From Leptogorgia sarmentosa (taxonomy: Eukaryota), in the NCBI GenBank assembly GCA_964658305.1, contig OZ210885.1, forward strand, positions 3,162,001 to 3,226,000: DNA of 64,000 bases, in the 5' to 3' direction. A program made the position numbers and the translations under genes. Below, piece after piece: positions 1,398-64,000 of the stretch (its first letter is position 1; every line of letters begins with the position of its first letter). The notes under the pieces are model-generated. The model did not search any database and had not been told where the DNA came from. It was given only the letters and a program-made list of their open reading frames with translations.

Positions 1398-4300
1398 GAA
1401 ACCAAGCACTTCGCCCATCAAACTTGATCTCAAGTCACAACGTTGATCTTTTGGCAGAATGTCATCTTCATTGTGTAAATGCAAGCAATTGCTACGGTTA
1501 AAACTTCAGAGTCAGACCTAGCAGTATTTATACAACCAACTGCCAGTTGAGTAACAGCTCCGTGAAAATGAACATGACAAAGATGAGGAATGGAGCTTGG
1601 CATTTCTACGAGGATGTTTTGGTAAGAATAATATAACCAGCAAATGATCCTATATTCCACGAAAATTTGGCCTTCATTGAACTCATCGCTGAACAATTCT
1701 CTTACCGTAAATTTTGTCACCCTATAGGTTACCAAAGGTAAGCGAAAATTATGAATTAATGCAGAGTCGTTCAATACAGGTAAAAGCATAAATAAATACA
1801 TGCATAAACTTTCTACGTATATATATTGAAAGATGAGACAAGATTCAACTTTTCAAGCAAAGGATCTTCTTGGGAGGATAGTTGTCAATGCTAAGTTGAA
1901 TTTTGTTTTATCGTTTACATAGTTGACGGAAAATTGATGTACTATAATTTGCTACTGTTCGTTACCCAGGGCCGTCGCTAGAACGTTAATTGGGAGGTGC
2001 ATATTCATATTTTGGCGTTCTGCCGACTGATTTCTTTTGAAATCAGTTGTTTATGAATTAATTTCAAAAGAAATCAGTCGGCAGAACGCCAAAATATGAA
2101 TATGCACCCCCCCAATTAACGTTCTAGCGACGGCCCTGTCGTTACCTATACTGGTCACATACGTATATCAAAATTATTCTGTAGCTAAATGTCGGCCGAG
2201 GTTACAAGTCCTTATTATGAGAATATTCAACATTCCTACTAAACCAAACATTTTAGGAAATAATTTTTGTATTGCTAAAGGATATATTGCATATATTGGT
2301 AATGAGGGGGCGGTGCCCCCATCCCAATTCAGCTTCAGCCCCCTCCCGCCCCCCCCCCCCTCCATCCCCCACAAAAAGAAATCCTGGTAAAAATCACGAT
2401 ATTTTAATTATTTCAGACATTGACGAATGTGCTCAGGATAGTCGCACATGTCATCCCAATGCAACATGTATCAACACTCCAGGTTCTTACGACTGTCAGT
2501 GTAGAAGTGGATACACTGGAAATGGCCGCACTTGCGCAGGTATTGCTCATGATGCTTGTCATAAAAATGTAATCAGTTGCAATACTTATTTATTTATTAA
2601 CTTTGCCAGATTTGAACAACGTTAACTCAAAAACTGGCAGGGCCTTCGCAACAGCTTGCGCCAATTACTGCGATCCCTAAATGTTAGACAAATACACTAT
2701 ATACGTACATAGAAAGAATTAATTACTAACGAACTATCAGATGCAACTTTTCACATTGCGACCCGCAGAACCACTTCCATTTAGGAAGCAGTCTGGATTA
2801 GAAGACGTTCAAACCTTCACGATCCTAAACCTATTGCAACGTTTACAAATAATCCAAGTTACTTTCAGACAATCAGACCATATTGACTTGAATTGCTCCA
2901 GCTTTCGTTATCATGTTGCAGATATTGACGAATGTCTGGACAAGTCCAATCATTGCCACTCAAATGCAAACTGCACAAATACTGACGGTTCATACAAATG
3001 TAAATGCTCTCAAGGTTACCGAGGAAATGGACAGAATTGTACAGGTAAATATCAGGACAACTTTTGTTTTGTTGAAGGGCGCTTCAGATAAAATTTGGGC
3101 CCAGGGGAAAGTAAACATGGGGAATGTGAAGTGTGAAGTTTCGGTACAAACTTAATGCTGCCGGTCTACAAACGTTTTGGAATTGTACTACGCAATCATT
3201 TGCAGTATCAGTGGCATTGTGATAATTATATTGCCATCGTGTAGATAACGGATAGTAACATCAACAACTAACAAAACTTCTAGTCTGTACTACTTTAATG
3301 ATATAAACAGATTTGACGTTCGAACAAAGGTCCACTGTCGGAAGTAATTACAGTCTGAAGGGGGGGGGGGGGGGGTACAGTCTTAAGGGAAGGGGGGGGG
3401 GGTGTTCAAGGTAAAGAATTTAATTACGTGCACGTTATCCACAATAGTTTTGCCAATGAGCCTTCAATAAGTATAAGTAACATCATAAGTAACATCAATG
3501 GTCACAAACGTTTATTTATCTTCTATCTTCTAGTATTTTTTACTGTTACTTCGTTCATTAAAATTTATTTCTCCTTTCTGGGGCCTTTTTTCCCCATTGA
3601 AGGCTCTGTTTAACAATTTAACTTCACACATTTTGTTTCACTTCGTCATTTGCTGCCAGAAATTTGTGAAACAGAGAAAAATCAATTTGGACGTTACTAT
3701 TATTTTTTAATTTTTCAGACATTGACGAATGTTCTGAAGGCAGCCATGGCTGTCACGCTGACGCAACCTGTGTCAACACTCCAGGATCATACAATTGCAC
3801 ATGTCCCAGTGGGGCATATATTGGCAGAAACAAATATTGCCAGAATCTCAAAGGTGATTTATTGTTTAGTGAGATTATTCAAGTTTCTTCGGTCAATGGT
3901 TATAAGCTAGAGTCTGGAGATGTGTTTCCATGTCTGGAAGAAACGTTAAATTCCTTTATCGTTAAATCATAGTTTAATAATAATAATGACAATAATATAT
4001 TAAATTTATATTCCCTCAGTCGTGTCAGCGATATTGAAAAATGAACCAAACGAATTCGAGAATAAGTTGAGAGAATGGTTGCCAAGAACAGGAAATTGGA
4101 GAGTTTGTTGGCGAGCAACACGAGATCGTTGGGCTGCGAGTACATTCCATTCAAATTGTGATGGAAAATTACCGACCTTAACTATTGTTCAAGTCATCAA
4201 AAACAGGACAAAGTTTGTTTTCGGCGGTTATGCTACAGTATCATGGAACCGCTATCACAGTTGTAAGTTTGAACTATGATTATAAGAGTTATAACCATGT

Positions 4301-5436
4301 ATATATCAGGTTCTTCTCTTCGCTCCATCTTAACTGACTCTTACTTTTATTAATTGGATTTGTTACCTGCATGGTCCGGCAATGACTACAATTATTGTGA
4401 TCGATTTGTTGATCAAATTGGACAAAAAACACGATAAAAATCTGCAAACGTTTGACTCAGGCTTCGAGGTGGAAAATCTGAATGCGTAATCATGCATTTT
4501 GACATTTTGTTTAAATCCCGGCGGTATATACATAAATGATAGTGCCATGTAGAATAAAAAAAATTGCCAGACTGCCTGTATATATACCATGCTACCGTTC
4601 TGTCTTTTAAACAATATGTAGATGTCCAGTTAAATTTTCAATATAATATGAACCACCAGACTTTTTAACTTTGGTTTACAGGGACTTTTCACAATTTCAA
4701 TTTTATGCCTGAATGAGATATAGCAGGGAGATTAGTTAAAATCTGGCCTCGTATAAAGGAGTTGCCATCTGAAATGGGATTCGAGTAATTAAATACGCGT
4801 ATTATTAGTAGGTGGTTTTCCACCAATGTGCTCATGTTTAGCCTACGTGACACAATGTTAATTTAACTCTTTATACTGGACCGATGTTAATTTAACAATT
4901 TATACACCAAATTTACTCATTATGGAGAGAAAATTAAATCTTCATCAAGGAGTTAAGGTCGTTTTATTTCTCCCACTCACACTGGCACCGCCCGCTCGAA
5001 ATTTTCGGGATTGCTTTGAAACTGATGATCTTTATCACGAATGAAATACCCGATTACTAAGAGACAGAGCAGTAATCATATCTGACCCAGGATTGTTGTG
5101 TTTATTTTGACAGATGGTCATTATAAATCTGCTCCAGGATCATTTTTGTTTTCTCTGCGCAATAACGATGACCTTCCACCATTCAAGGCTCCGATGAAAA
5201 ACAAGAATTACGTGCGTGCAATTTACCGTCACAATGGATATGGACCAACATTTGGTGGTGGTCACGACTTGTACATTGCCAACAATGCGAAAATAAACAC
5301 TTACTCCCACACGAATTTTGGTCACACCTACCAAGCTCCATCTGAATACACTTACGGCCAAGCCAACACATACTCCCTCTTGGCAGGAAGCTATAAATTC
5401 ACTCCATCAGAAGTCGAAGTCTTGTATCTAAATTAA
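1398..5436 (+). pseudogene. Copy 1 of PAN-cbEGF(x3)-TLDc gene; exon 1 lies upstream of the window; premature stop in the PAN exon
   Basis: Exons with GT-AG boundaries: 1398-1621 (PAN-like), 1728-1737 (microexon), 2417-2539, 2922-3044, 3719-3853 (cbEGF, DIDEC...), 4020-4262 and 5114-5436 (TLDc: [24 protein letters not shown] / [20 protein letters not shown]). TAA at 1499-1501 where the other copies have TAT. Bases 1-1397 match intron 1 of copy 5. Confidence 0.75.
1967..2138. mobile_element. 172-bp palindromic MITE with 8-bp TSD (hAT-type)
   Basis: Ends CAGGGCCGTCGCTAGAACG...CGTTCTAGCGACGGCCCTG; nearly the whole element is an inverted repeat. TCGTTACC is duplicated at 1959-1966 and 2139-2146. 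Copies 2 and 3 show the empty site (ctgttcgttacctatac). Confidence 0.93.
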
Positions 5437-7305: not shown

Positions 7306-7449
7306 CAGGGGCCTCGGGATATCAAAAATTAGGGGGGGGGCAAATATTCATATATTCGAAGTATTTGAAATCATCTGTTTTCAATGTCTGTTAACAAAAA
7401 TGTATGAATATCCCCCCCCCCCCCAATTATCGATTTTCCGCTGCCCCCA
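7306..7449. mobile_element. Decayed MITE resembling the 1967-2138 family, in the spacer
   Basis: CAGGGG...aaaattaggggggggcaaatattcata...tatgaatatccccccc aattatcg...gctgcccc, flanked by GGAACTAT and GGAACTCT (degenerate 8-bp TSD). Homologues lie near 18082, 29275 and 51528. Confidence 0.6.
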
Positions 7450-10039: not shown

Positions 10040-10077
10040 TATAAAAGTAGCCCAGCATACTACGATTTCATTCAGAC
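10040..10077 (+). promoter_or_regulatory. TATA box plus initiator-like motif of copy 2
   Basis: TATAAAA at 10040-10046 with TCATTCAGAC about 30 nt downstream, about 90 nt before the ATG. The same TATA is at 20889, 31211 and 53945. Confidence 0.65.
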
Positions 10078-10133
10078 AATTCGGACCGAAAAGCCTTGCC
10101 GAATCAACCTTTGGAATTCATCAATTTTAAAGA

Positions 10134-13100
10134 ATGAATTTTCTGGCATTGTTAATGGTGATGTTTCCGATGTCCATTGCACTGAAACCTGTTTCCAAAG
10201 ACGGAAAGACATGTTCTTGGAGACATTTCAAGAACGCCAGCTTGGGTAACTATTTTTTATATTAATTTGGGTTACAATTTTCATGTACACTCCACTTCGA
10301 GTTGAGCTGGCGCGTCATATCTTAACAGCCAAATTGTATTTGTATAGCATGCATAGGCATATAGCCTATTTCAGTTTAAACTCACTGATATATAATTTAT
10401 CATGATATGCGTGAATATCCGTCTAGATCGTTATCCGTTAGTTATGCTTGCCTCTACAGGCACTGCAGTTTAATGTTTGCATGCTGGAACCACATAAATT
10501 TTTGTTTCATGTGAAAGGCATATGATTTTTTATCCATGCACCTGCGATCGGTTGTACAAAGCGAGCTGAGGTCAGTAAGGTGCTGGCTCAATTGCTAGGG
10601 ACCTAAGTTTTTCAATTCCATCATTCAAGGCCATATCCTGGCTGTAATTTAATTTTTGGGATTTTCGGTTTTGCGGATTTGGTCAATTTTAGGACGATTT
10701 TTCGATTTTTGTGTCAAATAACTGCGGTTTTTCGGTTTCGGTAATTCTCCCGCGGTTTACGGTTTTTAAAGGTTTTAGCAGTCGGTTTTCGGTTTTCAAT
10801 TGAAATACTCATGGCCTTTCGGATTTGGTCTGGAATGTAATTTTCGGTTTCTATACCAGTCTGTTTACTTGGAAACTTCATAGAAAACTATTAATGATCT
10901 ACAGAAAATTTCTGAAGAAACATTTCTAAATTTTAAAGCAAATTGTTGGAGAATTTGCTCCGAAATTAAAGTTAACCCAGGGTTAAACTAACCGGCTTTT
11001 GAACAAAATCGGCCCCTGATTGCAAACAGATAGGGGCGGCTAAGTCACATGGCATCGGTGCAATTGTATTGAAAATTGATTCAGGCTAAACATTTATATA
11101 TATCTAAAGATCACAGAGAGGAGGCAAAGTACGAACGATTTATTAATTATTCTTATATCGGATCGCTTTGTTAGTTGCGTTACTATTTAACGTGTTGAAC
11201 AATACTATGAACTGTTGCATATGACTTGCATTGGTTAATGTATGTTAGTTACCTTTAGTTTTTTGCTATTATTCCGAACTCGCACGACTGATGAACATTG
11301 AATATAGTTTGAAATAAAACATCTGTCATTACTATTCCGCGCTATTCAACTGAAATCATCGAAGTTCCAAACTCCTGAAGCCTCTCAGGCGCGCTAAGTC
11401 ACCCCCCCCCCCCCCCCCCCCCCCCCGTAAGTCCAAGAATTGAAATCCAGATCTACAAAGGCCTAAACTCAAGATTGGCGCTTCCAGCAAACCGCTAACC
11501 GAAAGGGGCCAACTTCAAATCGTATTTTAAAGTAAGTTCTTCGGCAGGAAAGTGGATTATTCACGCTTAAATTTTCATTTACAAACCACCCCAACTTCGG
11601 ACAACGAACAGTTGATATTAATGTGCGAGAATTGAAGTTTGCCGTTTGCGGTTAACGTCAATCTAAAGTGCCTAATGTCAGTTTCACACTTTGTGTTTGT
11701 GTTCTTCGACAGGAAACCAAGCACTTCGTCCATCAAACTTGATCTCAAGTCACAACGTTGATCTTTTGGTAGAATGTCATCTTCATTGCGTAAATGCAGG
11801 CAATTGCTACGGTTATAACTTCAGAGTCAGACCTAGCAGTATTTATACAACCAACTGCCAGTTGAGTAACAGCTCCGTGAAAATGAACATGACCAAGATG
11901 AGGAATGGACCTTGGAATTTCTACGAGGATGTTTTGGTAAGAATAATATAACCAGCAAATGATCCTATATTCCACGAAAATTCGGGCCTCATTGAACTCA
12001 TCGCTGTACAATTCTCTTACCGTAAATTTTGTCACCCTATAGGTTACCAAAGGTAAGCGAAAATTATGAATTAATGCAGAGTCGTTCAATACAGGTAAAC
12101 GCATAAATAAATACATGCATAAACTTTCTACGTATATATTGAAAGATGAGACAAGATTCAACTTTTCAAGCAAAGGATCTTCTTGGGAGGATAGTTGTCA
12201 ATGCTAAGTTGAATTTTGTTTTATCGTTTACATAGTTGACGGAAAATTGATGTACTATAATTTGCTACTGTTCGTTACCTATACTGGTCACATACGTATA
12301 TCAAAATTATTCTGTAGCTAAATGTCGGCCGAGGTTACAAGTCCTTATTATGAGAATATTCAACATTCCTACTAAACCAAACATTTTAGGAAATAATTTT
12401 TGTATTGCTAAAGGATATATTGCATATATTGGTAATGAGGGGGCGGTGCCCCCATCCCAAGTTCAGCTTCAGCCCCTCCCGCCCCCCCCCCCCCCCTCCA
12501 CCCCCACAAAAAGAAATCCTGGTAAAAATCACGATATTTTAATTATTTCAGACATTGACGAATGTGCTCAGGATAGTCGCACATGTCATCCCAATGCAAC
12601 ATGTATCAACACTCCAGGTTCTTACGAGTGTCAGTGTAGAAGTGGATACACTGGAAATGGCCGCACTTGCGCAGGTATTGCTCATGATGCTTGTCATAAA
12701 AATGTAACCAGTTGCAATACTTATTTATTTATTAACTTTGCCAGATTTGAACAACGTTAACTCAAAAACTGGCAGGGCCTTCGCAACAGCTTGCGCCAAT
12801 TACTGCGATCCCTAAATGTTAGACAAATACACTATATACGTACATAGAAAGAATTAATTACTAACGAACTATCAGATGCAACTTTTCACATTGCGACCCG
12901 CAGAACCACTTCCATTTAGGTTGCAGTCTGGATTAGAAGACGTTCAAACCTTCACGATCCTAAACCTATTGCAACGTTTACAAATAATCCAAGTTACTTT
13001 CAGACAATCAGACCACATTGACTTGAATTGCTCCAGTTTTCGTTATCATGTTGCAGATATTGACGAATGTCTGGACAAGTCCAATCATTGCCACTCAAAT

Positions 13101-16091
13101 GCAAACTGCACAAATGCTGACGGTTCATACAAATGTAAATGCTCTCAAGGTTACCGAGGAAATGGACAGAATTGTACAGGTAAATATCAGGACAACTTTT
13201 GTTTTGTTGAAGGGCGCTTCAGATAAAATTTGGGCCCAGGAGAAAGTAAACTTGGGGAATGTGAAGTGTGAAGTTTCGGCACAAACTTAATGCTGCCGGT
13301 CTACAAACGTTTTGGAATTGTACTACGCAATCATTTGCAGTATCAGTGGCATTGTGATAATTATATTGCCATCGTGTAGATAACGGATAGCAACATCAAC
13401 AACTAACAAAAGTTCTAGTCTGTACTACTTAAATGATATAAACAGATTTGACGTTCGAGCAAAGGTCCACTGTCGGAAGTAATTACAGTCTAAAGGGGGG
13501 GGGGGGGTACAGTCTAAAGGGAAGGGGGGGGTGTTCAAGGTAAAGAATTTAATTACGTGCACGTTATCCACAATAGTTTTGCCAATGAGCCTTCAATAAG
13601 TATAAGTAACATCATAAGTAACATCAATGGTCACAAACGTTTATTTATCTTCTATCTTCTAGTATTTTTTACTGTTACTTCGTTCATTAAAATTTATTTC
13701 TCCTTTCTGGGGCCTTTTTTCCCCATTGAAGGCTCTGTTTAACAATTTAACTTCACACATTTTGTTTCACTTCGTCATTTGCTGCCAGAAATTTGTGAAA
13801 CAGAGAAAAATCAATTTGGACGTTACTATTATTTTTTAATTTTTCAGACATTGACGAATGTTCTGAAGGCAGCCATGGCTGTCACGCTGACGCAACCTGT
13901 GTCAACACTCCAGGATCATACAATTGCACATGTCCCAGTGGGGCATATATTGGCAGAAACAAATATTGCCAGAATCTCAAAGGTGATTTATTGTTTAGTG
14001 AGATTATTCAAGTTTCTTCGGTCAATGGTTATAAGCTAGAGTCTGGAGATGTGTTTCCATGTCTGGAAGGAACGTTAAATTCCTTTATCGTTAAATCATA
14101 GTTTAATAATAATAATGACAATAATATATTAAATTTATATTCCCTCAGTCGTGTCAGCGATATTGAAAAATGAACCAAACGAATTCGAGAATAAGTTGAG
14201 AGAATGGTTGCCAAGAACAGGAAATTGGAGAGTTTGTTGGCGAGCAACACGAGATCGTTGGGCTGCGAGTACATTCCATTCAAATTGTGATGGAAAATTA
14301 CCGACCTTAACTATTGTTCAAGTCAACAAAAACAGCAAAAAGTTTGTTTTCGGTGGTTATGCTACAGTATCATGGAAGCAGGGTATCTACCACAGCACCT
14401 GTAAGTTTGAAATGATTACAGTTATAAGAGTTATTATTTTAATCATGCATGTATCAGGTTCTTCTCTTCGCTCCATCTTAACTGACTCTTACTTTTATTA
14501 ATTGGATTTGTTACCTGCATGGTCCGGCAATGACTACAATTATTGTGATACAAACATTTGTTGATCAAATTGGACAAAAACACGATAAAAATCTGCAAAC
14601 TTTTGACTCAGGCTTCAAGGTGGAAAATCTGAATGCGTAATCATGCGTTTTGACATTTTGTTTAAATCCTGGCGGTATATACATAAATGCAGCCGTTGAA
14701 CAAAGACCTCAACGGGTAGTACCCAATATTTCTCAATTGAGAACACGGGTAATGCCCACGCTGGACTATCGCCTAAGCTTGCTGGTCGGCGTTTCAGTAT
14801 TACTCTTGATATAGTTATATAGTGTTAGATATAAACCATTTTTCTATATACTAAGAATTTCCTTAATCCCAACCCAAACCCTAGAATCCTAACCCTGACC
14901 ATTGTGGTCATAAAAATATTGAGAAAAAAAAGTTTTCATCACCAACGCTGAAAAAATGTGTCGTACTGGGGTTTGAACTATAGAACTGCAACGCACGCAC
15001 CGCGTGCCTTACCACTTGAGCTAAATCGAGCTCGCTGCTCAACACTCTGGCCTGGATAAATGCATATGATTATAGACCCGGGCAATCACTGTTCATAACT
15101 TACCTGGCCAGGCTACTTAGACGATAGTCCAGCGTGGGCATTACCCATGTTCTCAATTGAGAAATATCGGGTACTACCCGTTGAGGTCTTTGTTTAACGG
15201 GTGATCAATGATAGTGCCATGTAGAATAAAATAAATTGCCAGACTGCCATTATATACCACGATACCGTTCTGTCTTTTAAACATTATGTAGATGTCCAGT
15301 TAAATTTTCAATATAATATGAACCACCAGACTTTTTAACTTTGGTTTACAGGGACTTTTCACAATTTCAATTTTATGCCTGAATGAGATAGCAGGGAGGG
15401 GCTTCGTATAAAAGGAGTGCCATCTGAAATGGGATTCGAGTAATTAAATACGCGTATAATTAGTAGGTGGTTTTCCACCAATGTGTTCATGTTTAGCCTA
15501 CGTGGCACAATGTTAATTTAACTCTTTATACTGGACCGGTGTTAATTTAACAATTTATACACCAAATTTACTCATTATGGAGAGAAAATTAAATCTTCAT
15601 TCAGGAGTTACGGTCGTTTTATTTCTCCCATCCACACTGGCACCGCCCGCTCGAAAATTTCTGAATTGCTTTGAAACTGATGATCTTTATCACGACAAAA
15701 ATACCCGATTACTAAGAGACAGAGCAGTAATCATATCTGACCCAGGATTGTTGTGTTTATTTTGACAGATGCTCATTGGTCATCTGCTCCAGGATCATTT
15801 TTGTTTTCTCTGCGCAATAACGATGACCTTCCACCATTCAAGGCTCCGATGAAAAACAAGAATTACGTGCGTGCAATTTACCGTCACAATGGATATGGAC
15901 CAACATTTGGTGGTGGTCACGACTTGCACATTGCCAACGATGCGAAATCAAACACCAACTCCTACACGAGGTTTGGTCGCACCTACCAAGCTCCATCTGG
16001 ATACACTTACGACCAACCCATGACACAATCCCTCCTGGCAGGAAGCTATACCTTCACTCCATCAGAAGTCGAAGTCTTGTATCTAAATTAA
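10134..16091 (+). CDS. Copy 2: secreted PAN/apple-like + 3 cbEGF + TLDc protein, about 433 aa, intact
   Basis: Exons 10134-10245 ([18 protein letters not shown] signal-peptide-like), 11713-11936, 12043-12052, 12552-12674, 13057-13179, 13848-13982, 14149-14400, 15769-16091. All introns are GT-AG, phases are compatible, and the total is 1302 nt with no internal stop seen. Confidence 0.88.
10657..10855. repeat. CGGTTT-rich repeat in intron 1, probably a transposon subterminal fragment
   Basis: Multiple (T)CGGTTT motifs; homologous blocks at about 21508-21700, 33025-33220 and 55813-56010. No intact termini were recognised. Confidence 0.4.
14690..15203. mobile_element. 514-bp non-autonomous TIR element (about 90-bp imperfect TIRs, 7-bp TSD) in the last intron of copy 2
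   Basis: CAGCCGTTGAACAAAGACCTCAACGGGTAGTACCC... versus ...GGGTACTACCCGTTGAGGTCTTTGTTTAACGGGTG. Flanks are ATAAATG and ATCAATG. Copy 1 has the empty site (acataaatgatagtgcc). Confidence 0.9.
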
Positions 16092-20888: not shown

Positions 20889-20895
20889 TATAAAA
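20889..20895 (+). promoter_or_regulatory. TATA box of copy 3
   Basis: TATAAAA at the position homologous to copy 2, upstream of ATG 20983. Confidence 0.6.
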
Positions 20896-20982
20896 GTAGC
20901 CCCGCATACTACGATTTCATTCAGACAATTCAGACCGAAAAGCCTTGCCGAATCAACCTTTGGAATTCATCAATTTTAAAGA

Positions 20983-23900: not shown

Positions 23901-26887
23901 AAATGCAAACTGCACAAATACTGACGGTTCATACAAATGTAAATGCTCTCAAGGTTACCGAGGAAATGGACAGAATTGTACAGGTAAATATCAGGACAAC
24001 TTTTGTTTTGTTGAAGGGCGCTTCAGATAAAATTTGGGCCCAGGGGAAAGTAAACATGGGGAATGTGAAGTGTGAAGTTTCGGTACAAACTTAATGCTGC
24101 CGGTCTACAAATGTTTTGGAATTGTACTACGCAATCATTTGCAGTATCTGTGGCATTGTGATAATTACATTGCCATCGTGTAGATAACGGATAGCAACAT
24201 CAACAACTAACAAAAGTTCTAGTCTGTACTACTTAAATGATATAAACAGATTTGACGTTCGAACAAAGGTCCACTGTCGGAAGTAATTACAGTCTGAAGG
24301 GGGGGGGGTACAGTCTAAAGGGAAGGGGGGGTGTTCAAGGTAAAGAATTTAATTACGTGCACGTTATCCACAATAGTTTTGCCAATGAGCCTTCAATAAG
24401 TATAAGTAACATCATAAGTAACATCAATGGTCACAAACGTTTATTTATCTTCTATCTTCTAGTATTTTTTACTGTTACTTCGTTCATTAAAATTTATTTC
24501 TCCTTTCTGGGGCCTTTTTTCCCCATTGAAGGCTCTGTTTAACAATTTAACTTCACACATTTTGTTTCACTTCGTCATTTGCTGCCAGAAATTTGTGAAA
24601 CAGAGAAAAATCAATTTGGACGTTACTATTATTTTTTAATTTTTCAGACATTGACGAATGTTCTGAAGGCAGCCATGGCTGTCACGCTGACGCAACCTGT
24701 GTCAACACTCCAGGATCATACAATTGCACATGTCCCAGTGGGGCATATATTGGCAGAAACAAATATTGCCAGAATCTCAAAGGTGATTTATTGTTTAGTG
24801 AGATTATTCAAGTTTCTTCGGTCAATGGTTATAAGCTAGAGTCTGGAGATGTGTTTCCATGTCTGGAAGGAACGCTAAATTTCTTTATCGTTAAATCATA
24901 GTTTAATAATAATAATGACAATAATATATTAAATTTATATTCCCTCAGTCGTGTCAGCGATATTGAAAAATGAACCAAACGAATTCGAGAATAAGTTGAG
25001 AGAATGGTTGCCAAGAACAGGAAATTGGAGAGTTTGTTGGCGAGCAACACGAGATCGTTGGGCTGCGAGTACATTCCATTCAAATTGTGATGGAAAATTA
25101 CCGACCTTAACTATTGTTCAAGTCAACAAAAACAGCAAAAAGTTTGTTTTCGGTGGTTATGCTACAGTATCATGGAAGCAGGGTATCTACCACAGCACCT
25201 GTAAGTTTGAAATGATTACAGTTATAAGAGTTATTATTTTAATCATGTATCAGGTTCTTCTCTTCGCTCCATCTTAACTGACTCTTACTTTCATTAATTG
25301 GATTTGTTACCTGCATGGTCCGGCAATGACTACAATTATTGTGATACAAACATTTGTTGATCAAATTGGACAAAAACACGATAAAAATCTGCAAACTTTT
25401 GACTCAGGCTTCAAGGTGGAAAATCTGAATGCGTAATCATGCGTTTTGACATTTTGTTTAAATCCTGGCGGTATATACTTAAATGCAGCCGTTGAACAAA
25501 GACCTCAACGGGTAGTACCCAATATTTCTCAATTGAGAACACGGGTAATGCCCACGCTGGACTATCGCCTAAGCTTGCTGGTCGGCGTTTCAGTATTACT
25601 CTTGATATAGTTATATAGTGTAAGATATAAACCATTTTTCTATATACTAAGAATTTCCTTAATCCCAACCCAAACCCTAGAATCCTAACCCTGACCATTG
25701 TGGTCATAAAAATATTGAGAAAAAAAAGTTTTCATCACCAACGCTGAAAAAATGTGTCGTACTGGGGTTTGAACTATAGAACTGCAACGCACGCACCGCG
25801 TGCCTTACCACTTGAGCTAAATCGAGCTCGCTGCTCAGCACTCTGGCCTGGATAAATGCATATGATTATAGACCCGGGCAATCACTGTTCATAACTTACC
25901 TGGCCAGGCTACTTAGACGATAGTCCAGCGTGGGCATTACCCATGTTCTCAATTGAGAAATATCGGGTACTACCCGTTGAGGTCTTTGTTTAACGGGTGA
26001 TAAATGATAGTGCCATGTAGAATAAAATAAATTGCCAGACTGCCATTATATACCACGATACCGTTCTGTCTTTTAAACATTATGTAGATGTCCAGTTAAA
26101 TTTTCAATATAATATGAACCACCAGACTTTTTAACTTTGGTTTACAGGGACTTTTCACAATTTCAATTTTATGCCTGAACGAGATAGCAGGGAGGGGCTT
26201 CGTATAAAAGGAGTGCCATCTGAAATGGGATTCGAGTAATTAAATACGCGTATAATTAGTAGGTGGTTTTCCACCAATGTGTTCATGTTTAGCCTACGTG
26301 GCACAATGTTAATTTAACTCTTTATACTGGACCGGTGTTAATTTAACAATTTATACACCAAATTTACTCATTATGGAGAGAAAATTAAATCTTCATTCAG
26401 GAGTTACGGTCGTTTTATTTCTCCCATCCACACTGGCACCGCCCGCTCGAAATTTTCGGGATTGCTTTGAAACTGATGATCTTTATCACGACAGAAATAC
26501 CCGATTACTAAGAGACAGAGCAGTAATCATATCTGACCCAGGATTGTTGTGTTTATTTTGACAGATGGTCATTATAAATCTGCTCCAGGATCATTTTTGT
26601 TTTCTCTGCGCAATAACGATGACCTTCCACCATTCAAGGCTCCGATGAAAAACAAGAATGACGGGAATGCAATTTACCGTGGCAGTGGATATGGACCAAC
26701 ATTTGGTGGTAGTCACGACTTGTACATTGCCAACGATGCGAAATCAAACACCAACTCCTACACGAGGTTTGGTCACACCTACCAAGCTCCATCTGGATAC
26801 ACTTACGGCCAAGCCAACACACGATCCCTCCTGGCAGGAAGCCATTCCTTCACTCCATCAGAAGTCGAAGTCTTGTATCTAAATTAA
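20983..26887 (+). CDS. Copy 3: PAN-cbEGF(x3)-TLDc paralog with exon-1 donor changed GT>GA (possible pseudogene)
   Basis: Exons 20983-21094, 22516-22739, 22846-22855, 23356-23478, 23861-23983, 24648-24782, 24949-25200, 26565-26887. Exon frames are open, but the donor at 21095-21096 reads GA (ttgg|gaaact versus ttgg|gtaact in copies 2, 4 and 6). Confidence 0.72.
25486..25999. mobile_element. Same 514-bp TIR element at the equivalent site in copy 3
   Basis: Near-identical to 14690-15203; right-hand TSD ATAAATG at 26000-26006. Confidence 0.9.
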
Positions 26888-37200: not shown

Positions 37201-40013
37201 TCGAATGTTAATTTTTGTCTAAACAAAATAATTGGTTTAATAATAATAATAATAAGCATTGATTTTCTATATTCCTGTCTGACATTGTTTGGGTAAATTT
37301 ATATTCACTCAGACGTGTCAGGGATATTGAAAAATGAACCAAACGAATTCGAAAAGAAATTGAAAGAATGGGTGCCGAAAACAGGAGATTGGAGTATTTG
37401 TTGGCGAGCAACGCGAGATGGTTTGGCTGCGAGTACATTTCATTCAAATTGTGATGGAAAATCACCAACCATAACTATCGTTCAAGTTATCAAAAACAGC
37501 AAAAAGTTTGTTTTCGGCGGTTATGCTACAGTGCCATGGGGGAGCTCCAGTAAGTTTGAAATGATTACAGTTATGTGAGTTACTATTTTAATCATGTATT
37601 AGGTTCTTATAATCTTCTCTTCGCTCCATCTTAACTGACTCTTACTGAACGACTATTTTATTAATTGGATTTGTTATCTGCATGGTCCGGCAATGACTAC
37701 AATTATTGTGATACAAACATTTGTTGATCAAATTTGACAAAAACATGATAAGAATCTGCTAAACGTTTGTCTCAGGCTTCAAGGTGAAAAATCTGAATGC
37801 GTTATCATGCATTTTGATGCATGCATGACATTTTGTTTAAATCCTGGCGTTATTTATGAATGTACAGTCTACAGTGCCCTGTAGTATAAAATGAATTGCC
37901 AATATATATACCATGATACCGTTCTGTCTTTAAACATGCAGCTATAGATGTCCAGGTAAATTTACAACTTCAATAATATGAACCAGCATACTTTTTAACT
38001 TTGGTTTACAGGGACTTTTCATAATTTCAATCTTATGCCTGAATGAGATAGCAGGGAGATTATTTAAAATCTGGCCTCGTATAAAGGAGTGCCATCTGAA
38101 ATGGGATTCGAGTAATTAAATACGCGTATTATTAGTAGGTGGTTTTCCACCAATGTGCTCATGTTTAGCCTACGTGGCACAATGTTAATTTAGCTCTTTA
38201 TACCGGACCGGTGTTAATTTAACAATTTATCACATCAAATTTACTCATTATGGAGAAAAAATTAAATCTTCATTCAGGGAGTTAAGGTCGTTTAATTTCT
38301 CCCATTCACACTGGCACCGCCCGCTCGAAATTTTCGGGATTGCTTTGAAACTGATTATCTTTATCACGACTGAAATACCCGATTACTAAGAGACAGAACC
38401 AGGGGCCGCGGAAGCACCTCAAAAGTGCGGGGGGTGGGGAGGGGGGGCACATTAAAAAAAGGGCACGGATGAAAAAGGGCACTTTCCTTTCAAAAAAGGC
38501 ACATTTACCCTTTGTCCAAAATTGTGGGGGGGGGGGGGGCACTTGCCCCCAATGCCGTAAAATACTGACATTAATGATTAATTACATTATTATATCAAGC
38601 GCACACTATATGACACAAAAGGCCCTATATAACACAAAAAGGGCACAAATCTAATCGAAAAAAGGGCATATTTTCTCGTTTTCAAAAAGTGGGGGAGAAC
38701 CGTGCCCCAGTACCCCCCCCCCCCCCCCTGTTCCGCAGTAATCATATCTGACCAAGGATTATTGTGTTTATTTTGACAGATGGTGCAGGGGTGGCGCCAG
38801 AAATTCCCCGACAGGGGGGCTATGGACCCCGACAGGGGGGCTGAGCCATTATGCTCTCGTGGCCACGCCCCAAAATTGTTATTTAAACGTTACATTTCCC
38901 ATGCAATTTTGACAACGTGTAGAATGGTATAATACACTATTAAACTATCGTACATATAGTTTAATAATTCTATACCAATGAATGAACAATTAATTTACAA
39001 ATTGAAAACAGAAAGCTAGGAACCGTATGAGGAATTCATCAAATGAATTTCTTTGTACTATAAATGATTTGATGGAAGACTTTAGGAAGTAATTTGTATT
39101 AGCTTTTTAGAATATTTTACAGCAATTACTATAAAACACATATAAACAGGCAACATTAACAGAAAAATATCACGCCATGGAATGTTCAACATTACGTTCA
39201 GAGTGCAATTCTACATTTAGGAAACCTAGCTTTGAACCTGTCAACTACAGTGTCTAAGTCCAGTTTGCTCCCTCGATCGCGATGAATTCCTAGCATCATC
39301 AGGCTGTCTAAACGTTCCTGTGCCATCACTGATCGAAGATCGTTCTCTATTAGCCGCATTGAGCTGAAGGTCCGGAAAGCGACTGGCGACAGCGGTTATA
39401 ACGCGCGCAAACTTTTATTTAAAGTTTAATTAAAGTATCTGTTCTCTGACATAAGATAAGGATTGGTAAAACGTTTTATCTTGTACAACGTTCATAAGAC
39501 AATATCTGTCAGAAGACATAATTCTAATGGCTACAAGCGTATAAGTACAACTGTCGTAACTTTCATCTTAATAATATATCTCCTGTTCTGTTCCCCGACG
39601 AATTGTCAGATTTTCCCCGACAGGGGGGCTAGGGTTCCCCGACGGGGGGGCTGTAGCCCCCCCTGCCCCCCCTCTGGCGCCACCCCTGAGATGGTGATTA
39701 CACATCTGCTCCAGGATCATTTTTGTTTTCTCTGCGCAATAAGGATAACCTTCCACCATTCAAGGCTCCGCTGAATGGCCGGAATGACGGGTATGCAATT
39801 TGGCATCACAGTGGATATGGACCAGTATTTGGTGGTGGTAGCGACTTGTACATTGCCAACGATGCGAAATCAAACACAAACTCCTACACGAATTTTGGCC
39901 ACACCTACCAAGCTCCATCTGGATACACTTACGACCAAGCCAACACAAAATCCCTCCTGGCAGGAAGCTATTCCTTCACTCCATCAGAAATCGAAGTCTT
40001 ATATCTAAATTAA
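31297..40013 (+). CDS. Copy 4: PAN-cbEGF(x4)-TLDc paralog; last-exon acceptor interrupted by a transposon (about 463 aa if the element is spliced out)
   Basis: Exons 31297-31408, 34067-34290, 34454-34463, 34900-35022, 35118-35240, 35400-35522, 36978-37094, 37313-37549. The terminal TLDc exon 39691-40013 is displaced from its original acceptor (38778-38779) by a 903-bp insertion. Confidence 0.72.
31948..32140. mobile_element. About 190-bp MITE in intron 1 of copy 4
   Basis: TIRs CAGGGCCGCCCAGAG and CTCTGGGCGGCCGTG; flanks TAAATTAC and TAACTTAC (degenerate 8-bp TSD). Confidence 0.75.
38400..38736. mobile_element. MITE-like insertion with truncated right TIR, in the last intron of copy 4
   Basis: Absent from the other copies (agacagagcagtaatc). 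It starts CAGGGGCCGCGGAA, ends TTCCGC (partial inverted match), and has internal AAAGGGCAC repeats. Confidence 0.7.
38786..39688. mobile_element. 903-bp non-autonomous hAT-type element at the acceptor of copy 4's last exon
   Basis: Perfect 16-bp TIR CAGGGGTGGCGCCAGA / TCTGGCGCCACCCCTG; 8-bp TSD AGATGGTG at 38778-38785 and 39689-39696; subterminal CCCCGACAGGGGGGCT repeats; no transposase ORF. Confidence 0.95.
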
Positions 40014-46500: not shown

Positions 46501-49500
46501 TCAGAAGTGCAGAAGTTTCGCGACACTGAACTTGCTGCCGGTCTACAAACGTTTAGGAAATTAGACTAAACAATCATTTGAGAACAGCGATTCTATTTTA
46601 AAACAACTTTGCTATATTTCATTTAAATTCGCTTCCTCTGCCGCGTTACATTATTCAGACGAATTGTGAAGTGATGTATGTAACTTCTCAATTTATTCAC
46701 AAAAGCAATAATAACGCGCGTTTAACAAAAAAAAGAGCGGTTTCTTTTGGTATCGTATGCTAATATATTATGGGCACTTTAATATAGTGCTGTGCTCTGA
46801 CAAGTACATATAGTATTAAAGCAGGGACGTAAATATCGAAGATGGCTGGGGTGAGGTGTTCATGAAAATCAGACCGACCAATTGCTGATATGCGAATTTA
46901 GACCGACTACAGCTAAAACTAGTTAATACTACCAATAACTGTTTTTTTACGAAAAATATACAATGTATTTTATAGTTGTGATATAACGGGCTGTAGTTTG
47001 TAGCAACGGTTAAAGAGGTGTAGCCATCCAAGATATTCGGTCGGTCTCATCAAGTAATTGTTTATGATTTATTTTCAGACTGAGTCTAATCAATTTTGAG
47101 ACCGACTATAACATTTTATTGGCGGGAGGGGGTATGTTTCACCCCCCCCCCCCCCCCCTCACACCCCACCACCACAGTTACGCCCCAGAGCTCATATGCG
47201 CAGTCTTGCTACGGAACGAAGCTGAATTAGAATATTATAATTTTTCTTGTTAATTCATTCATTCAAATTTACTTCTCCATTCTGAAACTTTTTCCCATTT
47301 GAAGTATACGATATGTTTTTCGGTGATCAAGTACGCGCAAATACGTTAATATTTTTATTCATGTATGAGAAACTGCTTGGACATTACCGTTTTAGACAGT
47401 CATTTATTTGCGATCTAGTTCCATAAGTTTTATTCAAACAGGTCATGAAATTAGTTGATCACTGTATGCTCGCTTGTCAGCAATTCCTTTTTCTTCCATG
47501 GATGTTTCTTATAGTTTTTCAGTTGTTAACGAATCTATGATTCTTGTAGCTAATTATGGTGAAGCATCGAGCAGTTCAATAAAGAGCAGAAATATAAAAT
47601 AATTTAGACAAGATCTAGAAACAAAATATATAACTTCGTAAGATCTTATTTAATTTGTTTAACTTCGTCATTTGTTTCTAGAAGTTTGTTAAACTGAAAA
47701 ATTTATGACTTTCTTATTTTTAATTTTTCAGACATTGACGAATGTTCTGAAGGCAGCCATGGCTGTCACGCTGACGCAACCTGTAACAACACTCAAGGAT
47801 CATACAGTTGCACGTGTCCCAGTGGAAAATATTGCCACAACATCAAAGGTGATTTATGTTTTAGTGAGATTAACATGTATTCAAGTTTCTTTGGGTCAAT
47901 TGTTAAGAGTGTGGAAATGTGTTTCCATGTCTGGAAGGAACGTTAAATTGTTTTATCGAATGTTCATTTTTCTCTAAACAAAATAATTAGTTTAATAATA
48001 ATAATGACAATAATAATAATCATATATTACTATATACCTTACTATATATGCCTGACTGAAATTGTTCGGTTAAATTTATATTCACTCAGACGTGTCCGAG
48101 ATATTGGAAAATGAACCAGTAGAATTCGAGAATAAGTTGGGAGAATGGTTGCCGAAAACAGGAAATTGGAGCATATGTTGGAGAGCAACACGAGATGGTT
48201 GGGCTGCGAGTACATTTCATTCAAATTGTGATGGGAAATTACCGACCATAACTATCGTTCAAGTCATCAAAAACAGCAAAAAGTTTGTTTTCGGCGGTTA
48301 TGCTACAGTATCATGGAGGAGCTACTACAACTGTAAGTTTGAAATGATTACAGTTATATGAGTTATTATTTTAATCATGTATTAGGTTGTTATAATCTTA
48401 TCTTCGCTCCATCTTAACTGACTCTTACTTTTATTAATTGGATTTGTTACCTGCATGGTCCGGCAATGAATAAAATTATTGTGATACAGAGATTTGTTGA
48501 TGAAATTGGACAAAAACACGATAAAAATCTGCCAAAAGTTTGTCTCAGGCTTCAAGGTGAAAAATCTGAATGCGTTATCATGCATGTTGATACATGCATG
48601 ACATTTTGCTTAAATCCCGGCGTTATTTATGAACGTACAGTCTGCAGTGCCCTGTAGTATAAAATAAATTGCCAGTATATATACCATGATACCGTTCTGT
48701 CTTTAAACATGCAGCTATAGATGTCCAGGTAAATTTACAACTTCAATAATATGAACCAGCATACTTTTTAACTTTGGTTTACAGGGACTTTTCATAATTT
48801 CAATTTTATGCCTGAATGAGATAGCAGGGAGATTAGTTAAAATCTGGCCTCGTATAAAAGGAGTGGCATCTGAAATGGGATTCGAGTAATTAAATACGCG
48901 TATAATTAGTAGGTGGTTTTCCACCAATGTGTTCACGTTTAGCCTATACGTGGCTGCCACGACGTGGCACAATGTTAATTTAACTCTTTATACTGGACCG
49001 GTGTTAATTTAACAATTTATCACATCAAATTTACTCATTATGGAGAAAAAATTAAATCTTCATTCAGGAGTTAAGGTCGTTTTATTTCTCCCATCCACAC
49101 TGGCACCGCCCGCTCGAAATTTTCTGAATTGCTTTGAAACTGATGATCTTTATCACGACTGAAATACCCGATTACTAAGAGACAGAGCTGTATATCATAT
49201 CTGACCCAGGATTGTTGTGTTTATTTTGACAGATAATCAATGGTCATCTGCTCCAGGATCATTTTTGTTTTCTCTGCGCAACAAAGATGACCTTCCACCA
49301 TTCAAGGCTCCGCTGAAAAGCGTGAACAGCGGGCACGCACTTTGCTGGCGCAGTACACATGGACCAACATTTGGTGGTGGTCACGACTTGTACATTGCCA
49401 ACGATGCGAAATCAAACACCAACTCCTACACGCATTTTGGTCACACCTACCAAGCTCCATCTGGATACACTTACGACCAAACCAACACACGATCCCTCCT

Positions 49501-49555
49501 GGCAGGAAGCTATTACTTCACTCCATCAGAAGTCGAAGTCTTGTATCTAAATTAA
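43532..49555 (+). CDS. Copy 5: secreted PAN-cbEGF(x3)-TLDc protein with a divergent (type B) signal exon, about 423 aa, intact
   Basis: Exons 43532-43640 ([19 protein letters not shown]; an in-frame upstream ATG lies at 43511), 45155-45378, 45543-45552, 45989-46111, 46271-46393, 47732-47848, 48090-48332, 49233-49555. Total 1272 nt, GT-AG throughout, no stop seen. Confidence 0.88.
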
Positions 49556-60000: not shown

Positions 60001-63000
60001 TTAATAATAATAATAATCAGCATTGATTTTCTATATTCCTGTCTGACATTGTTTGGGTAAATTTATATTCACTCAGGCGTGTCAGGGATATTGAAAAATG
60101 AACCAAACGAATTCGAAAAGAAATTGGAAGAATGGGTGCCGAAAACAGGAGATTGGAGTATTTGTTGGCGAGCAACGCGAGATGGTTGGGCTGCGAGTAC
60201 ATTTCATTCAAATTGTGATGGAAAATCACCAACCATAACTATCGTTCAAGTTATCAAAAACAGCAAAAAGTTTGTTTTCGGCGGTTATGCTACAGTGCCA
60301 TGGGGGAGCTCCAGTAAGTTTGAAATGATTACAGTTATGTGAGTTATTATTTTAATCATGTATTAGGTTCTTATAATCTTCTCTTCGCTCCATCTTAACT
60401 GACTCTTACTGAACGACTATTTCATTAATTGGATTTGTTACCTGCATGGTCCGGCAATGACTACAATTATTGTGATACAAACATTTGTTGATCAAATTTG
60501 ACCAAAACACGATAAGAATCTGCTAAAAGTTTGTCTCAGGCTTCAAGGTGAAAAATCTGAATGCGTCATCATGCATTTTGATGCATGCATGACATTTTGT
60601 TTAAATCCTGGCGTTATTTATGAATGTACAGTCTACAGTGTCCTGTAGTATAAAATAAATTGCCAGTATATATACCATGATACCGTTCTGTCTTTAAACA
60701 TGCAGCTATAGATGTCCAGGTAAATTTAAAACTTCAATAATAATGAACCAGCATACTTTTTCTATCTGCGAACGCAGATACTATGCTATGACCCTGTTAG
60801 CTGTTAGCTGTTAGCTGTTAGCTGTTAGCTGTTAGCTGTTAGCTTCTAGCCAATCAGCGACGAGCTTTTGCTTATAATTACGTAATGCAAGATGGCGGCG
60901 TTCGAGGAGTGAAGGCGATGTGCGATCGGATTTTTGCGAAAATGTGAAGTGCAGTGTTTAAGTACGACGGTTTAAGCAAACAATCTTGACTTTGCAGGTC
61001 CCTGTCAATGTGCAGTTGTAATTTAACAAAGGATTTAAAACGGCAGCGTGCTGTTTTAGTTGTCGGCCTTTCGGTTTGTAAATTAAAAATGCGTACAGAG
61101 CACACTGTCCAGATGGCCGACCCATGAACAGTGAACTCAAATAAAACTGGAACGCTAGCTGGGCGGGAAATTTTGAAGCCAATATGGCGGAAATTGAAGC
61201 TCGTCTTGTAGGTATGATCCAGGCCCCTGCGCGGATTATCCGCGGATTATCGCCATGCTTTCACCCTTCGTGACTACCCTACGCAAAAAACACGCGTGTT
61301 TTATACCTACAAGAGAGGCTTCAATTTCCGCCATCTTGGCTTCAGGCATGTATGGGCATGTTTACCTGCAGCTAGCGTTCCAGTTTTATTTTGAGTTCAC
61401 TGCCCATGAACGGTTTTGTCACAGCACGCTAAATAAAAACTGGATACATTCTGTTGAAGTAGCCTGTTCGCAGGTTAAATCTAATCATATTCAAGATGGC
61501 GGTAAAAATTGAAATAAGGCCAAAACGATATAATTAAATAATTTAATGTCATTTACATGTAATATTAGGTAATCCCACGATATTCAGTATAAAACCATAG
61601 TTTTATGCATATTGGAGGCACAAAGAAAGTTTTTTCCCAAGGAATTTCCTCGTATTTTTCACGAAAGAGTCGAAGGAGGAAGGTGAGAAATGCTGTATAT
61701 GAGAACAGTCAACCAGGGGCGGATCCAGGGGTAGTCAAAGCGATCACGCGACTAACGTAAAAAATGCAGTTTATGAAATTTTTTCTCATCTATTATTCTA
61801 GTGCGAAAATGCGGTCCAGTTTAAAATTTCGTCCAGTTGCACATTAATCTTTTATCTTGTGTCAGTACAAGTGAACAGCGGCCTAGCGCGTGAGTTTTGA
61901 TCGGTCACATGTCAAATTCGCGCAATCCGATTGGCCATTTCGTAGTTCTCCATGGCGACCCAGGTTTTGATCGATCTAGAGGTTGGTCTGATCGATCTAG
62001 GGGCATGTTGGGGGTGTGTTAGAGCTCATACAAGCCACTCAATTGGCTAATTCAAAATAGTATCTTCATTCCCATTGGTTGTAATTTCTTGATCGATCAT
62101 GACCGATCAGACGTTCAGAGAGCTGGTCTCGTATTAGCGCCTTTTCGATACTGTGAGCCTTGAACGCGAAGGAGAGAATACAGCGAGTATTTCACAATGT
62201 CTTGTGATATTTTCGAGAGTGTACGCTTGGCGTTTCAGCAAAACGACCAAGTCTCCCCTCAAAATATTATGACGATTTAAAACGCGAGGTTGAAGCGAGA
62301 AGAGGTCCATCGGTCGAAGAGTTGTTGAGCGCGATTATATAAACAACATAAACATGTGCCTCAGGCGAAGCTATAGTGCTGAATCGTTCATCCCCAAATC
62401 TGCTCGAGAAGGGAAAGACAAGATCTGTACTGCAATAAGGTCAAGATATTAGTATTATTTGTTTATTATAATGCTGGTTTATGTCTTTCTCATGTTAATA
62501 AATACTAAATAGCGTCTATACATTTCTCGCGTTACGCGTCTTGCTTGCGGCAGCCGGCAAGACTTGATATATTACTATTAGGTAGTCAAGCATTAAAGTA
62601 TAATGTAACAAATAAATAACAAGCATTAGTATAATATTATAAGGTTGGCAAGTAAACAATAATATGATGGCTCGCTACCGCCTAAAACAAGGCGAAAAAA
62701 TCAACGTCTCGCCAACAAACTTCGCTAAAAAATAGCAGCCCCTACTTCTAGGATAGTATTACTAAATATGTACAACGTTTTTTGGCAACAAAACGAGTGA
62801 AAAAGTCGAAAAAATACGAAAAGTTTCTCTTAATTTGCCGTGTCTCGATGCTGGATGCCTGTTGCCGTGCAAAAATTGCCGTTTGAAATAACGAATACGC
62901 GATCCTATTGGTGGGCTGTTATGTCGGTTTATTTATAACCAATAGGATCGCGTATTCGTCATTTGAAACGGCAATTTTTGCACGGCAACAGGCATCCAGC

Positions 63001-64000
63001 ATCGAGACACGGCAAATTGAAAGAAACTTTTCGTATTTTTTCGACTTTTTCACATGTTTTGTTGCCTGAAAACGTTGTACATATTTAGTAATACTATCCT
63101 AGAAGTAGGGGCTGCTATTTTTTAGCGAAGTTTGTTGGCGAGACGTTGATTTTTTCGCCTTGTTTTAGGCGGTAGCGAGCCATCATATTATTGTTTACTT
63201 GCCAACCTTATAATATTATACTAATGAATACTACGTCATGCGTGCGTTGGGCTACCTATGCTAAGGTACGAAAAATCCTGGATCCGCCCCTGCAGTCAAC
63301 ACTAACTAAACATCGCATATTTAATAACACAGCATGCTGATTTAGGAAATCTGTTTGAGGATACATGTGCGCTTTGCGAACCTATTTTTAACTTTGGTTT
63401 ACATATGCCTGAACGAGATAGCAGGGAGCCAAGGAGGTTAATTAAAATCTGGCTTCGTATAAAAGGAGTGCCATCTGAAATGGGATTCGAGTAATTAAAT
63501 ACGTACGCGTATTATTAGTAGGTGGTTTTCCACCAATGTGTTCATGTTTAGCCTACGTGGCACAATGTTGATTTAACTCTTTATACTGGATCGATGTTAA
63601 TTTAACAATTTATACACCAAATTTACTCATTATGGAGAGAAAATTAAATCTTCATTCAGGAGTTAAGGTCGTTTTATTTCTCCCATCCACACTGGCACCG
63701 CCCGCTCAAATTTTTTTGGATTGCTTTGAAACTGATGATCTTTATCACGACTGAAATACCCGATTACTAAGAGACAGAGCTGTAATCACATCTGACCCAG
63801 GATTGTTGTGTTTATTTTGACAGGTGATCATACATCTGCTCCAGGATCATTTTTGTTCTCTCTGCGCAATAACGATGACCTTGCACCTTTCAAGGCTCCG
63901 CTGAAAGACCAGAATAACGGGTATGCAATTTACCGCCACAGTGGATATGGACCAACATTTTGTGGTGGTTGCGACTTGGTCATTGCCGACGATGCGAATT
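54031..64000 (+). CDS. Copy 6: PAN-cbEGF(x4)-TLDc paralog, 3' end runs off the window
   Basis: Exons 54031-54142, 56853-57076, 57240-57249, 57684-57806, 57902-58024, 58184-58306, 59742-59858, 60077-60313, and 63824 to the window edge ([51 protein letters not shown]). The frame is open to the edge. Confidence 0.82.
54693..54884. mobile_element. Same MITE at the equivalent site in intron 1 of copy 6
   Basis: Homologous to 31948-32140, with the same TIRs and flanks. Confidence 0.75.
60794..60842 (+). repeat. (CTGTTAG)7 microsatellite
   Basis: Seven perfect 7-mers read directly. Confidence 0.97.
61129..61402. mobile_element. 274-bp MITE with 8-bp TSD, nested in the Helentron-like element
   Basis: TIR CAGTGAACTCAAATAAAACTGGAACGCTAGCTG with its inverted copy ending at 61402; TSD CCCATGAA at 61121-61128 and 61403-61410. 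Confidence 0.9.
61714..63292. mobile_element. 1579-bp non-autonomous hAT-type element, nested
   Basis: Perfect 16-bp TIR CAGGGGCGGATCCAGG / CCTGGATCCGCCCCTG; TSD CAGTCAAC at 61706-61713 and 63293-63300. Confidence 0.93.
62624..63226. repeat. Long foldback palindrome (289-bp arms, 25-nt spacer)
   Basis: 62624-62912 is the near-perfect reverse complement of 62938-63226, with only a few mismatches. Confidence 0.95.

Follow-up and report, generated by a model that had tools for sequence, protein, structure and literature searches.

Diversifying selection on a TLDc exon in a tandem, predicted secreted gene family of Leptogorgia sarmentosa, with loop diversity that appears inherited rather than rearranged

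How does a protein loop encoded across a splice junction come to differ in length and sequence from one gene copy to the next? The question is raised by a stretch of 64,000 nucleotides from Leptogorgia sarmentosa (assembly GCA_964658305.1, contig OZ210885.1, positions 3,162,001 to 3,226,000; hereafter the window, numbered from its first letter), in which we found six tandem copies of one eight-exon gene at a spacing of about 11 kb. The loop joins the two parts of a TLDc domain that is divided between exons A and B (Pfam), and an initial annotation compared it to a CDR3, diversified by recombination in the intron between these exons and possibly by splicing across copies. In our analysis the loop is a real feature, ordinary in its indels and splice phase, and part of an apparently undescribed, positively selected and predicted extracellular TLDc family, yet the strongest signal is one that the initial annotation did not name, namely diversifying selection over exon B. 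The window genes are thus likely to be a hitherto undescribed family of recognition proteins whose variability is inherited, and not a system that rearranges in the manner of antibodies.

Each gene is composed of a hydrophobic N-terminal exon, a PAN exon, a 10-nt micro-exon, three calcium-binding EGF exons and TLDc exons A and B; the first exon of copy 1 lies outside the window and exon B of copy 6 is cut by the window end. Both TLDc exons of copies 2 and 5 pass PF07534 separately, at 27.3-40.8 bits against a curated cut-off of 24.5, and the best named matches of exon B come from octocorals (69% identity in Dendronephthya, 61-63% in Xenia). The protein is predicted to be secreted, since the sole hydrophobic stretch of copies 2 and 5 is N-terminal and no internal hydrophobic segment is seen in their hydropathy profiles. 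No Ig match was obtained among the copy 2 exons scanned with Pfam.

Counted without the junction loop, exon B has a ratio of non-synonymous to synonymous differences (pN/pS) of 1.96 (bootstrap P=0.008), as against 0.29 for PAN, 0.80 for EGF and 0.42 for exon A, and the maximum-likelihood (ML) omega (dN/dS) of exon B is about 2.8 (likelihood ratio test p=5e-4), with 0.43, 0.83 and 0.51 for PAN, EGF and exon A, respectively. Neutral simulations, drawing a new tree every 15 codons and allowing 0-30% multi-nucleotide changes, reached 1.96 in only 1 of 400 runs at each of three settings. Copies 2 and 3 have identical exons A and differ at 10 of 1364 intron positions (0.7%); their exons B differ at 22 sites, all of them non-synonymous. 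Omega above 1 is confined to exon B of the head domain, the signal being weaker in a codon count made without transition bias, and the core residues of exon B are almost invariant.

For the location of the variable residues, the window protein was represented by the structure model of homolog P0003, which has 69% identity to exon B. This model (predicted local distance difference test, pLDDT, 93) has the TLDc fold, with Z 19.9 and a root-mean-square deviation of 1.9 over 157 residues aligned to 7obp. A wide structure search gave only TLDc entries above Z 5 (6 of 48161) and an Atlas search gave TLDc clusters only, while a PDB sequence search with exon B returned nothing meaningful (best E 0.4). 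A fibrinogen-like or ficolin fold was also considered and was not significant (Foldseek probability <=0.15, Z <=3.9). The short strands of sheet 2 show an alternation of variable residues with hydrophobic ones that are either invariant or conservatively substituted (model residues 122/123, 131/132, 138-140, 150-154 and 180/181), which suggests that the variable residues line one outer face of sheet 2, edged by two loops. In NCOA7, beta6-beta9 and the start of beta10 belong to this sheet (PMC8329711). In addition, copies 1-3 have an arginine (4127, 14256 and 25056) at a glycine kept in most homologs, where copies 4-6 have glycine; by hand count on the construct in Table 1 of PMC8329711, this position would equate with G815 of NCOA7, a residue needed for V-ATPase binding (PMC8608904).

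The junction loop would form one edge of this face. In the P0003 model it connects strand 69-77 with strand 98-103 and itself contains a strand of two residues, and it corresponds to the beta3-beta4 loop of TLDc, which is length-variable across the family. The loops extended in fly TBC1D24 are beta3-beta4 and beta5-beta6 (PMC8329711), and by our own mapping these would be the junction loop and the second variable patch of the window proteins. Joining exon A to exon B reproduced all six loops, from the conserved W to SAPGS, as they were first read, and their description as hypervariable and rich in aromatic residues also held: lengths are 7-13 in the window and 6-13, mostly 7-8, in 41 homologous loops, and F/W/Y/H make up 34% of the window loops vs 15% of the homologous ones (40 of 51 homologs fit the loop pattern, giving 41 loops, and the 11 unmatched proteins were dropped). 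No tandem repeat was found in the loop. All indels are multiples of 3, with exon A measuring 243/252/252/237/243/237 nt in copies 1 to 6 and exon B 323 nt in copies 1-5, the start of exon B in copy 6 being 3 nt shorter than in the other copies. Every junction is in phase 1 behind a homologous GTAAGT donor, and the alignment of these donors across the copies places the length changes within the exons, which rules out splice-site sliding as their source. In-frame indels with a common phase are, however, to be expected, since about three independent indels in one homologous coding junction would leave both. The reported sharing of halves was recovered as well, the left half being common to copies 2 and 3 and the right half to copies 1 and 3; the left half is also common to copies 4 and 6, while copies 4, 5 and 6 each have a right half found in no other copy.

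That more loop variants exist beyond the window is seen in contigs of other samples and in homologs. Contigs of one other sample (runs X1-X3) contain the copy 2/3 left half together with forms that fall short of it by 15 and 9 nt, as those of copy 4/6 and of copy 5 do, as well as new left halves W-DIN and W-NRK (hand-translated), each followed by a phase-1 GTAAGT; some of these may belong to distant paralogs. Further left halves occur in two other homologs. In run X4, four contigs lie over the exon and leave the intron uncovered; two of them pass from exon A straight into exon-B-like sequence, one with its join exactly at the predicted acceptor and in frame (W-KRHYNHGHYT-SA). X4 not being on record as RNA, the source may be either spliced RNA or a relative's copy that has no intron, so that the join agrees with the predicted junction without proving expression of a window copy.

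A loop of this kind could also be a mere indel-tolerant site in a decaying array under relaxed constraint, most copies of which are dying. Four of the six copies do carry a lesion or a lost cysteine, namely a stop codon inside the PAN exon of copy 1, GA instead of GT at the exon-1 donor of copy 3, the interrupted exon B of copy 4 (see below), and the loss of one EGF2 cysteine in copies 4 and 6, leaving copies 2 and 5 alone without a visible lesion. The EGF omega of 0.83, the range of 6-13 among the homologous loops and the extension of both loops in fly TBC1D24 (PMC8329711) would fit such a decay too. Yet relaxed constraint predicts an omega near 1, not 2.8, and it leaves the almost invariant core of exon B unexplained, as it does the 29 non-synonymous (N) against 2 synonymous (S) differences among copies 2, 3 and 5 alone (P=0.002); we therefore give it little credence.

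Whether the A-B intron is the place where loop halves are exchanged can be answered in part. Exons A and B do differ in genealogy, as proposed, and this is seen in the site groupings of copies 1-3. At all 17 gap-free informative sites from 14420 to 15632, copies 2 and 3 agree and copy 1 is the one that differs; from 15657 to 15781 copy 2 is odd at 8 of 10 sites; copy 3 is odd at 8/8 sites from 15864 to 15915, and copy 1 again at 8/8 from 15939 to 15971. An exchange point thus exists at 15632-15657, about 120 nt before the acceptor, but over most of the intron copies 2 and 3 are not separated. The tract in which copy 2 is odd covers at most about 230 bp around the acceptor, ending before 15864, and at several of its sites copy 2 equals copy 5; the shared right half is for these reasons best read as a conversion patch and not as a swap of exon B, the remainder of which is a patchwork of 50-100-bp tracts. 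On a larger scale, the pattern in the upstream introns is dominated by a split between copies 1-3 and copies 4-6 (112 sites in the EGF2-EGF3 intron), of which the last trace is at 15362. The two lineages differ by 25-42% in that EGF intron, by 3-4.5% in the distal part of the A-B intron and by 8-14% in exon B. The micro-exon has two between-lineage differences, both silent.

Scanned in triplets, the whole repeat unit yielded 132 change points, which came to 48 intervals when merged by hand and to 35 clusters when merged by script. If the A-B intron were a dedicated shuffling site, its crossovers recombining loop halves into a CDR3-like germline combinatorics, one would expect what is in fact seen at 15362 and 15632-15657, where the lineage split ends and the grouping of copies 1-3 switches inside the intron, and perhaps also a contig of run X4 in which a new left half is followed by a right half intermediate in sequence between the form of copies 1/3 and that of copy 4. 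The TLDc exons with their intron hold 12/35 clusters (p=0.002), although power is uneven along the unit and the exon B points may be homoplasy produced by selection. The intron alone, however, is not significantly enriched, with 6/35 clusters (p=0.065, or p=0.21 when the comparison is confined to the gene body). Switches just as strong occur at the PAN start, in the micro-exon intron and at EGF3, the acceptor tract is short and ends inside exon B, and copies 4, 5 and 6 share no right half with another copy. Moreover, heptamer-spacer-nonamer signals (consensus form, spacers of 11-13 and 22-24, <=3 mismatches) gave 0 matches on both strands of the whole window. A dedicated shuffling intron is hence unlikely, and the comparison with CDR3 was overstated.

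That exons A and B from different copies should be joined within one animal, by cross-copy splicing or somatic rearrangement, is in our judgement extremely unlikely. The copies would seem suited to it, having an acceptor context identical over 30 nt in 5/6 copies (two changes at the native site of copy 4) and a common phase that would keep chimeras in frame. Splicing in cis would nevertheless need read-through of a copy's own terminal exon and its poly(A)-like signals and a skip of about 11 kb, rearrangement finds no signal-like site in the window, and germline mosaicism already accounts for the shared halves. No GT-AG joint at an exon boundary was present among the best 15 of 85 joints from four contig sets over 3500-23400, a result uninformative on cross-copy splicing.

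Copy 4 calls for a separate remark. Its loop reads as the initial annotation gave it, but its exon B is interrupted, 6 nt from the start, by a DNA-transposon-like element, and the junction first proposed depends on the second copy of the AG, at 39689-39690, which is a GAG site poor in T. The native acceptor (between 38779 and 38780) reads into the element and meets a stop after 21 codons. The copy 4 loop is therefore the pre-insertion form, and it may not be made. At 38778-39696 the target duplication recreates the AG and would restore the frame if used as acceptor, in which case the element could act as an extension of the intron. Insertions in the A-B intron or at its end are found in 4/6 copies. 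The inverted-repeat element of copies 2 and 3 reaches a contig depth hundreds of times the local background and has an empty site in copy 1, and the A-B intron of copy 6 holds about 2.6 kb of extra sequence (60760-63400), including a 289-bp inverted repeat at 62624-63226.

Downstream of copy 4, 41347-43334 is a 99% identical partial duplicate of 38467-39312 plus 40208-41346, without exon B, and may be a recent duplication or an assembly artefact. One may ask whether the array itself is such an artefact, with haplotypes set in tandem and some copies being alleles, and the identity of about 95% over 8.6-9.8 kb between copies 2 and 3 and between copies 4 and 6, like this duplicate, would be compatible with that. 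Nonetheless, insertions and mosaic joins are particular to each copy, several types of left half (those of copy 2/3, of copy 4/6 size and of copy 5 size) occur together in one other sample, and allelic status would leave the exon B signal standing; an artefact of this sort is very improbable.

Features of the window referred to in the text (positions of the window)
Feature	Position	Strand	Basis or remark
Copy 2 exon 1, predicted signal peptide and start of mature protein	10134..10245	+	hydropathy
Copy 2 PAN/apple exon	11713..11936	+	Pfam PF00024, E=4e-5, above curated cut-off
Copy 2 micro-exon, 10 nt, phase 0 to phase 1	12043..12052	+	inferred from AG/GT ends and frame
Micro-exon, all six copies	1728-1737, 12043-12052, 22846-22855, 34454-34463, 45543-45552, 57240-57249		between PAN and EGF1
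Copy 2 three calcium-binding EGF exons	12552-12674, 13057-13179, 13848-13982	+	Pfam PF07645
Copy 2 TLDc exon A	14149..14400	+	Pfam PF07534; loop left half 14376-14400
Copy 2 A-B intron	14401..15768	+	
Copy 2 TLDc exon B with stop	15769..16091	+	Pfam PF07534; loop right half 15769-15782
Copy 1 TLDc exons	4020..5436	+	A 4020-4262, B 5114-5436
Copy 3 TLDc exons	24949..26887	+	A 24949-25200, B 26565-26887
Copy 4 TLDc exons	37313..40013	+	A 37313-37549; interrupted B 38780-38785, then 39689-40013
Copy 5 TLDc exons	48090..49555	+	A 48090-48332, B 49233-49555; gene 43532-49555
Copy 6 TLDc exons	60077..64000	+	A 60077-60313; B from 63824, cut by window end
DNA-transposon-like element in copy 4 exon B, 903 bp	38786..39688	.	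16-bp terminal inverted repeats, 8-bp target duplication
Inverted-repeat element, high-copy, in A-B intron of copies 2 and 3	14690..15203; 25486-25999	.	

Outside the TLDc exons, the first intron is common to copies 5 and 1 (43532-45154 and 1-1397, 1.8% apart) and essentially unalignable to that of copies 2, 3, 4 and 6, while the signal exon of copy 5 is 28-29% different; two promoter or leader types are thus joined at the PAN start. The spacers contain an intergenic unit of about 750 bp, duplicated in tandem within each (7362-8847, 18143-19678, 29331-30394 and 51589-53125), at 79-87% unit identity.

A parallel is found in Montipora, where EGF-TLDc paralogs lie on single large contigs and have, by eye, a signal-like start and a PAN-like cysteine pattern. 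The N-terminal half of these paralogs is nearly fixed (per-site difference 0.08) and the C-terminal half differs at 0.25 per site, and their variable columns coincide with those of the window (27/38 vs 17/64, p=1.4e-5). The columns of eleven other octocoral-type proteins coincide too (p=4e-4), and five collagen-Ig-Sushi-TLDc proteins, used as a control, gave no coincidence (ratio 1.03, p=0.41). Other anthozoan proteins carry TLDc at the end of collagen-Ig-Sushi or TSP1 stalks. One Xenia protein (P0005, 648 aa) has a C-terminal TLDc, looks secreted and shows a fibrinogen-like motif by eye, with TLD as its only Pfam match at E<=1e-4. A metagenome scan gave seven distant loci at 32-45% identity, which were not used. 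A Symbiodinium TLDC2 gene is present in a positive-selection list (PMC12284398). No description of a secreted coral TLDc family was found in the literature searched, from which subscription papers, mostly, and supplements, which may list such genes, fell outside.

The characterised TLDc members are intracellular V-ATPase binders (PMC8608904, PMC8804929, PMC9263379). With NCOA7, OXR1/Oxr1p, TBC1D24, mEAK-7 and Rtc5p (PF07534) the window proteins share the same motifs and, by the model of their close homolog, the same fold (Z 13.9-19.9), and the beta3-beta4 loop is already length-variable among the solved structures (PMC8329711). Unlike these cytosolic proteins, the window genes have a predicted signal peptide and a disulfide-rich PAN-EGF stalk, are arranged in tandem under diversifying selection, and in copies 1-3 have arginine at the hand-mapped G815. 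They resemble rather the anthozoan extracellular TLDc proteins (EGF-TLDc of Dendronephthya and Montipora, collagen-Ig-Sushi-TLDc, and TSP1-TLDc of Nematostella), which present a C-terminal TLDc head on a stalk of extracellular modules, have several paralogs per contig and, in Montipora, the same variable columns; these are annotated as uncharacterised or by the similarity of their stalk.

Germline-diversified families such as plant NLR clusters, snail FREPs, amphioxus VCBPs and sea-urchin Sp185/333 evolve by birth-and-death, with conversion tracts and with selection on one exposed sheet and its loops. The window genes are like them in their tandem paralogs with pseudogenes, in exchange among paralogs and in a dN/dS above 1 confined to the head domain, and unlike them in the head domain itself, fibrinogen-like heads scoring below Z 4 against the P0003 TLDc model; function has been shown for those families and is putative in the window genes. 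In V(D)J systems, the CDR3 is a length-variable aromatic loop built from two genomic segments, a description that would suit the window loop as well, but here the join is an ordinary intron, the diversity appears inherited and no signal sequences were found in the window.

A variable face might alternatively serve self/non-self recognition between colonies or gametes, and not the recognition of microbes. The Alr1/Alr2 genes of Hydractinia offer the precedent, being a cnidarian cluster with polymorphic extracellular domains and pseudogenes that acts in allorecognition (PMC9546547), with chimeric alr2 alleles known (PMC3342096). On the other hand, Alr proteins are transmembrane members of the Ig superfamily with shown homophilic binding and have no domain in common with the window proteins, which have no predicted membrane anchor or cytoplasmic tail, and the variation described here is among paralogs. 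This alternative is decidedly unlikely.

Taken as a whole, we consider it probable that the locus is a tandem germline family evolving by birth-and-death, with exon B of an extracellular TLDc domain as a variable binding head and the junction loop as one edge of its face. Unequal crossing-over and gene conversion would keep the distal intron and the intergenic DNA alike, and would move patches of 50-250 bp between copies; point mutation, small in-frame indels and short-tract exchange would diversify the face in the germline, and selection would retain new surface variants. The outer side of TLDc sheet 2, comprising beta6-beta9 and the first part of beta10, would make up this face together with the loops beta3-beta4 and beta5-beta6, while PAN and EGF would serve as a constant stalk. 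Its target is the least certain part of this mechanism; the most likely role, to which we would give about even odds, is the binding of changeable foreign surfaces, for example of microbes, symbionts or parasites. Perhaps TLDc is, in anthozoans (soft and stony corals alike), a hitherto unrecognised secreted variable recognition head with a main loop that spans an intron, in which inherited exchange near the acceptor recombines loop halves and sheet patches into a combinatorial germline repertoire for microbes or symbionts, but this fuller version is tentative and we rather doubt it.

Several points weigh against the probable reading of a selected, secreted binding head. The selection tests exclude the loop, which could not be aligned for dN/dS; a count of one hit per codon (57 N/11 S) gives P=0.011 at a transition bias (kappa) of 3.2 and P=0.074 at kappa 1; of the 6 single pairs tested, 3 fall short of significance, and the six copies analysed include a partial one and only two, copies 2 and 5, free of visible lesions. 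The face, with the exposure and closeness of its patches, is a prediction from alternation along strands, and secretion is one from hydropathy. The Montipora comparison covers 6/7 paralogs (one with the same TLDc was dropped), mixes two species and was made on alignment columns, and the columns shared with it could partly be positions tolerated by the fold.

What the locus would mean for cnidarian biology can nevertheless be stated. The idea of a CDR3 is put in its place, the diversity of the loop looking inherited, not rearranged. A small testable surface, made of two loops and one sheet, is named for ligand searches in the context of coral immunity, symbiosis and self-recognition. If true, the cnidarian recognition toolkit would gain a new head domain, a secreted and tandemly amplified TLDc on which diversifying selection acts and whose variable positions are also those that vary in a stony coral.

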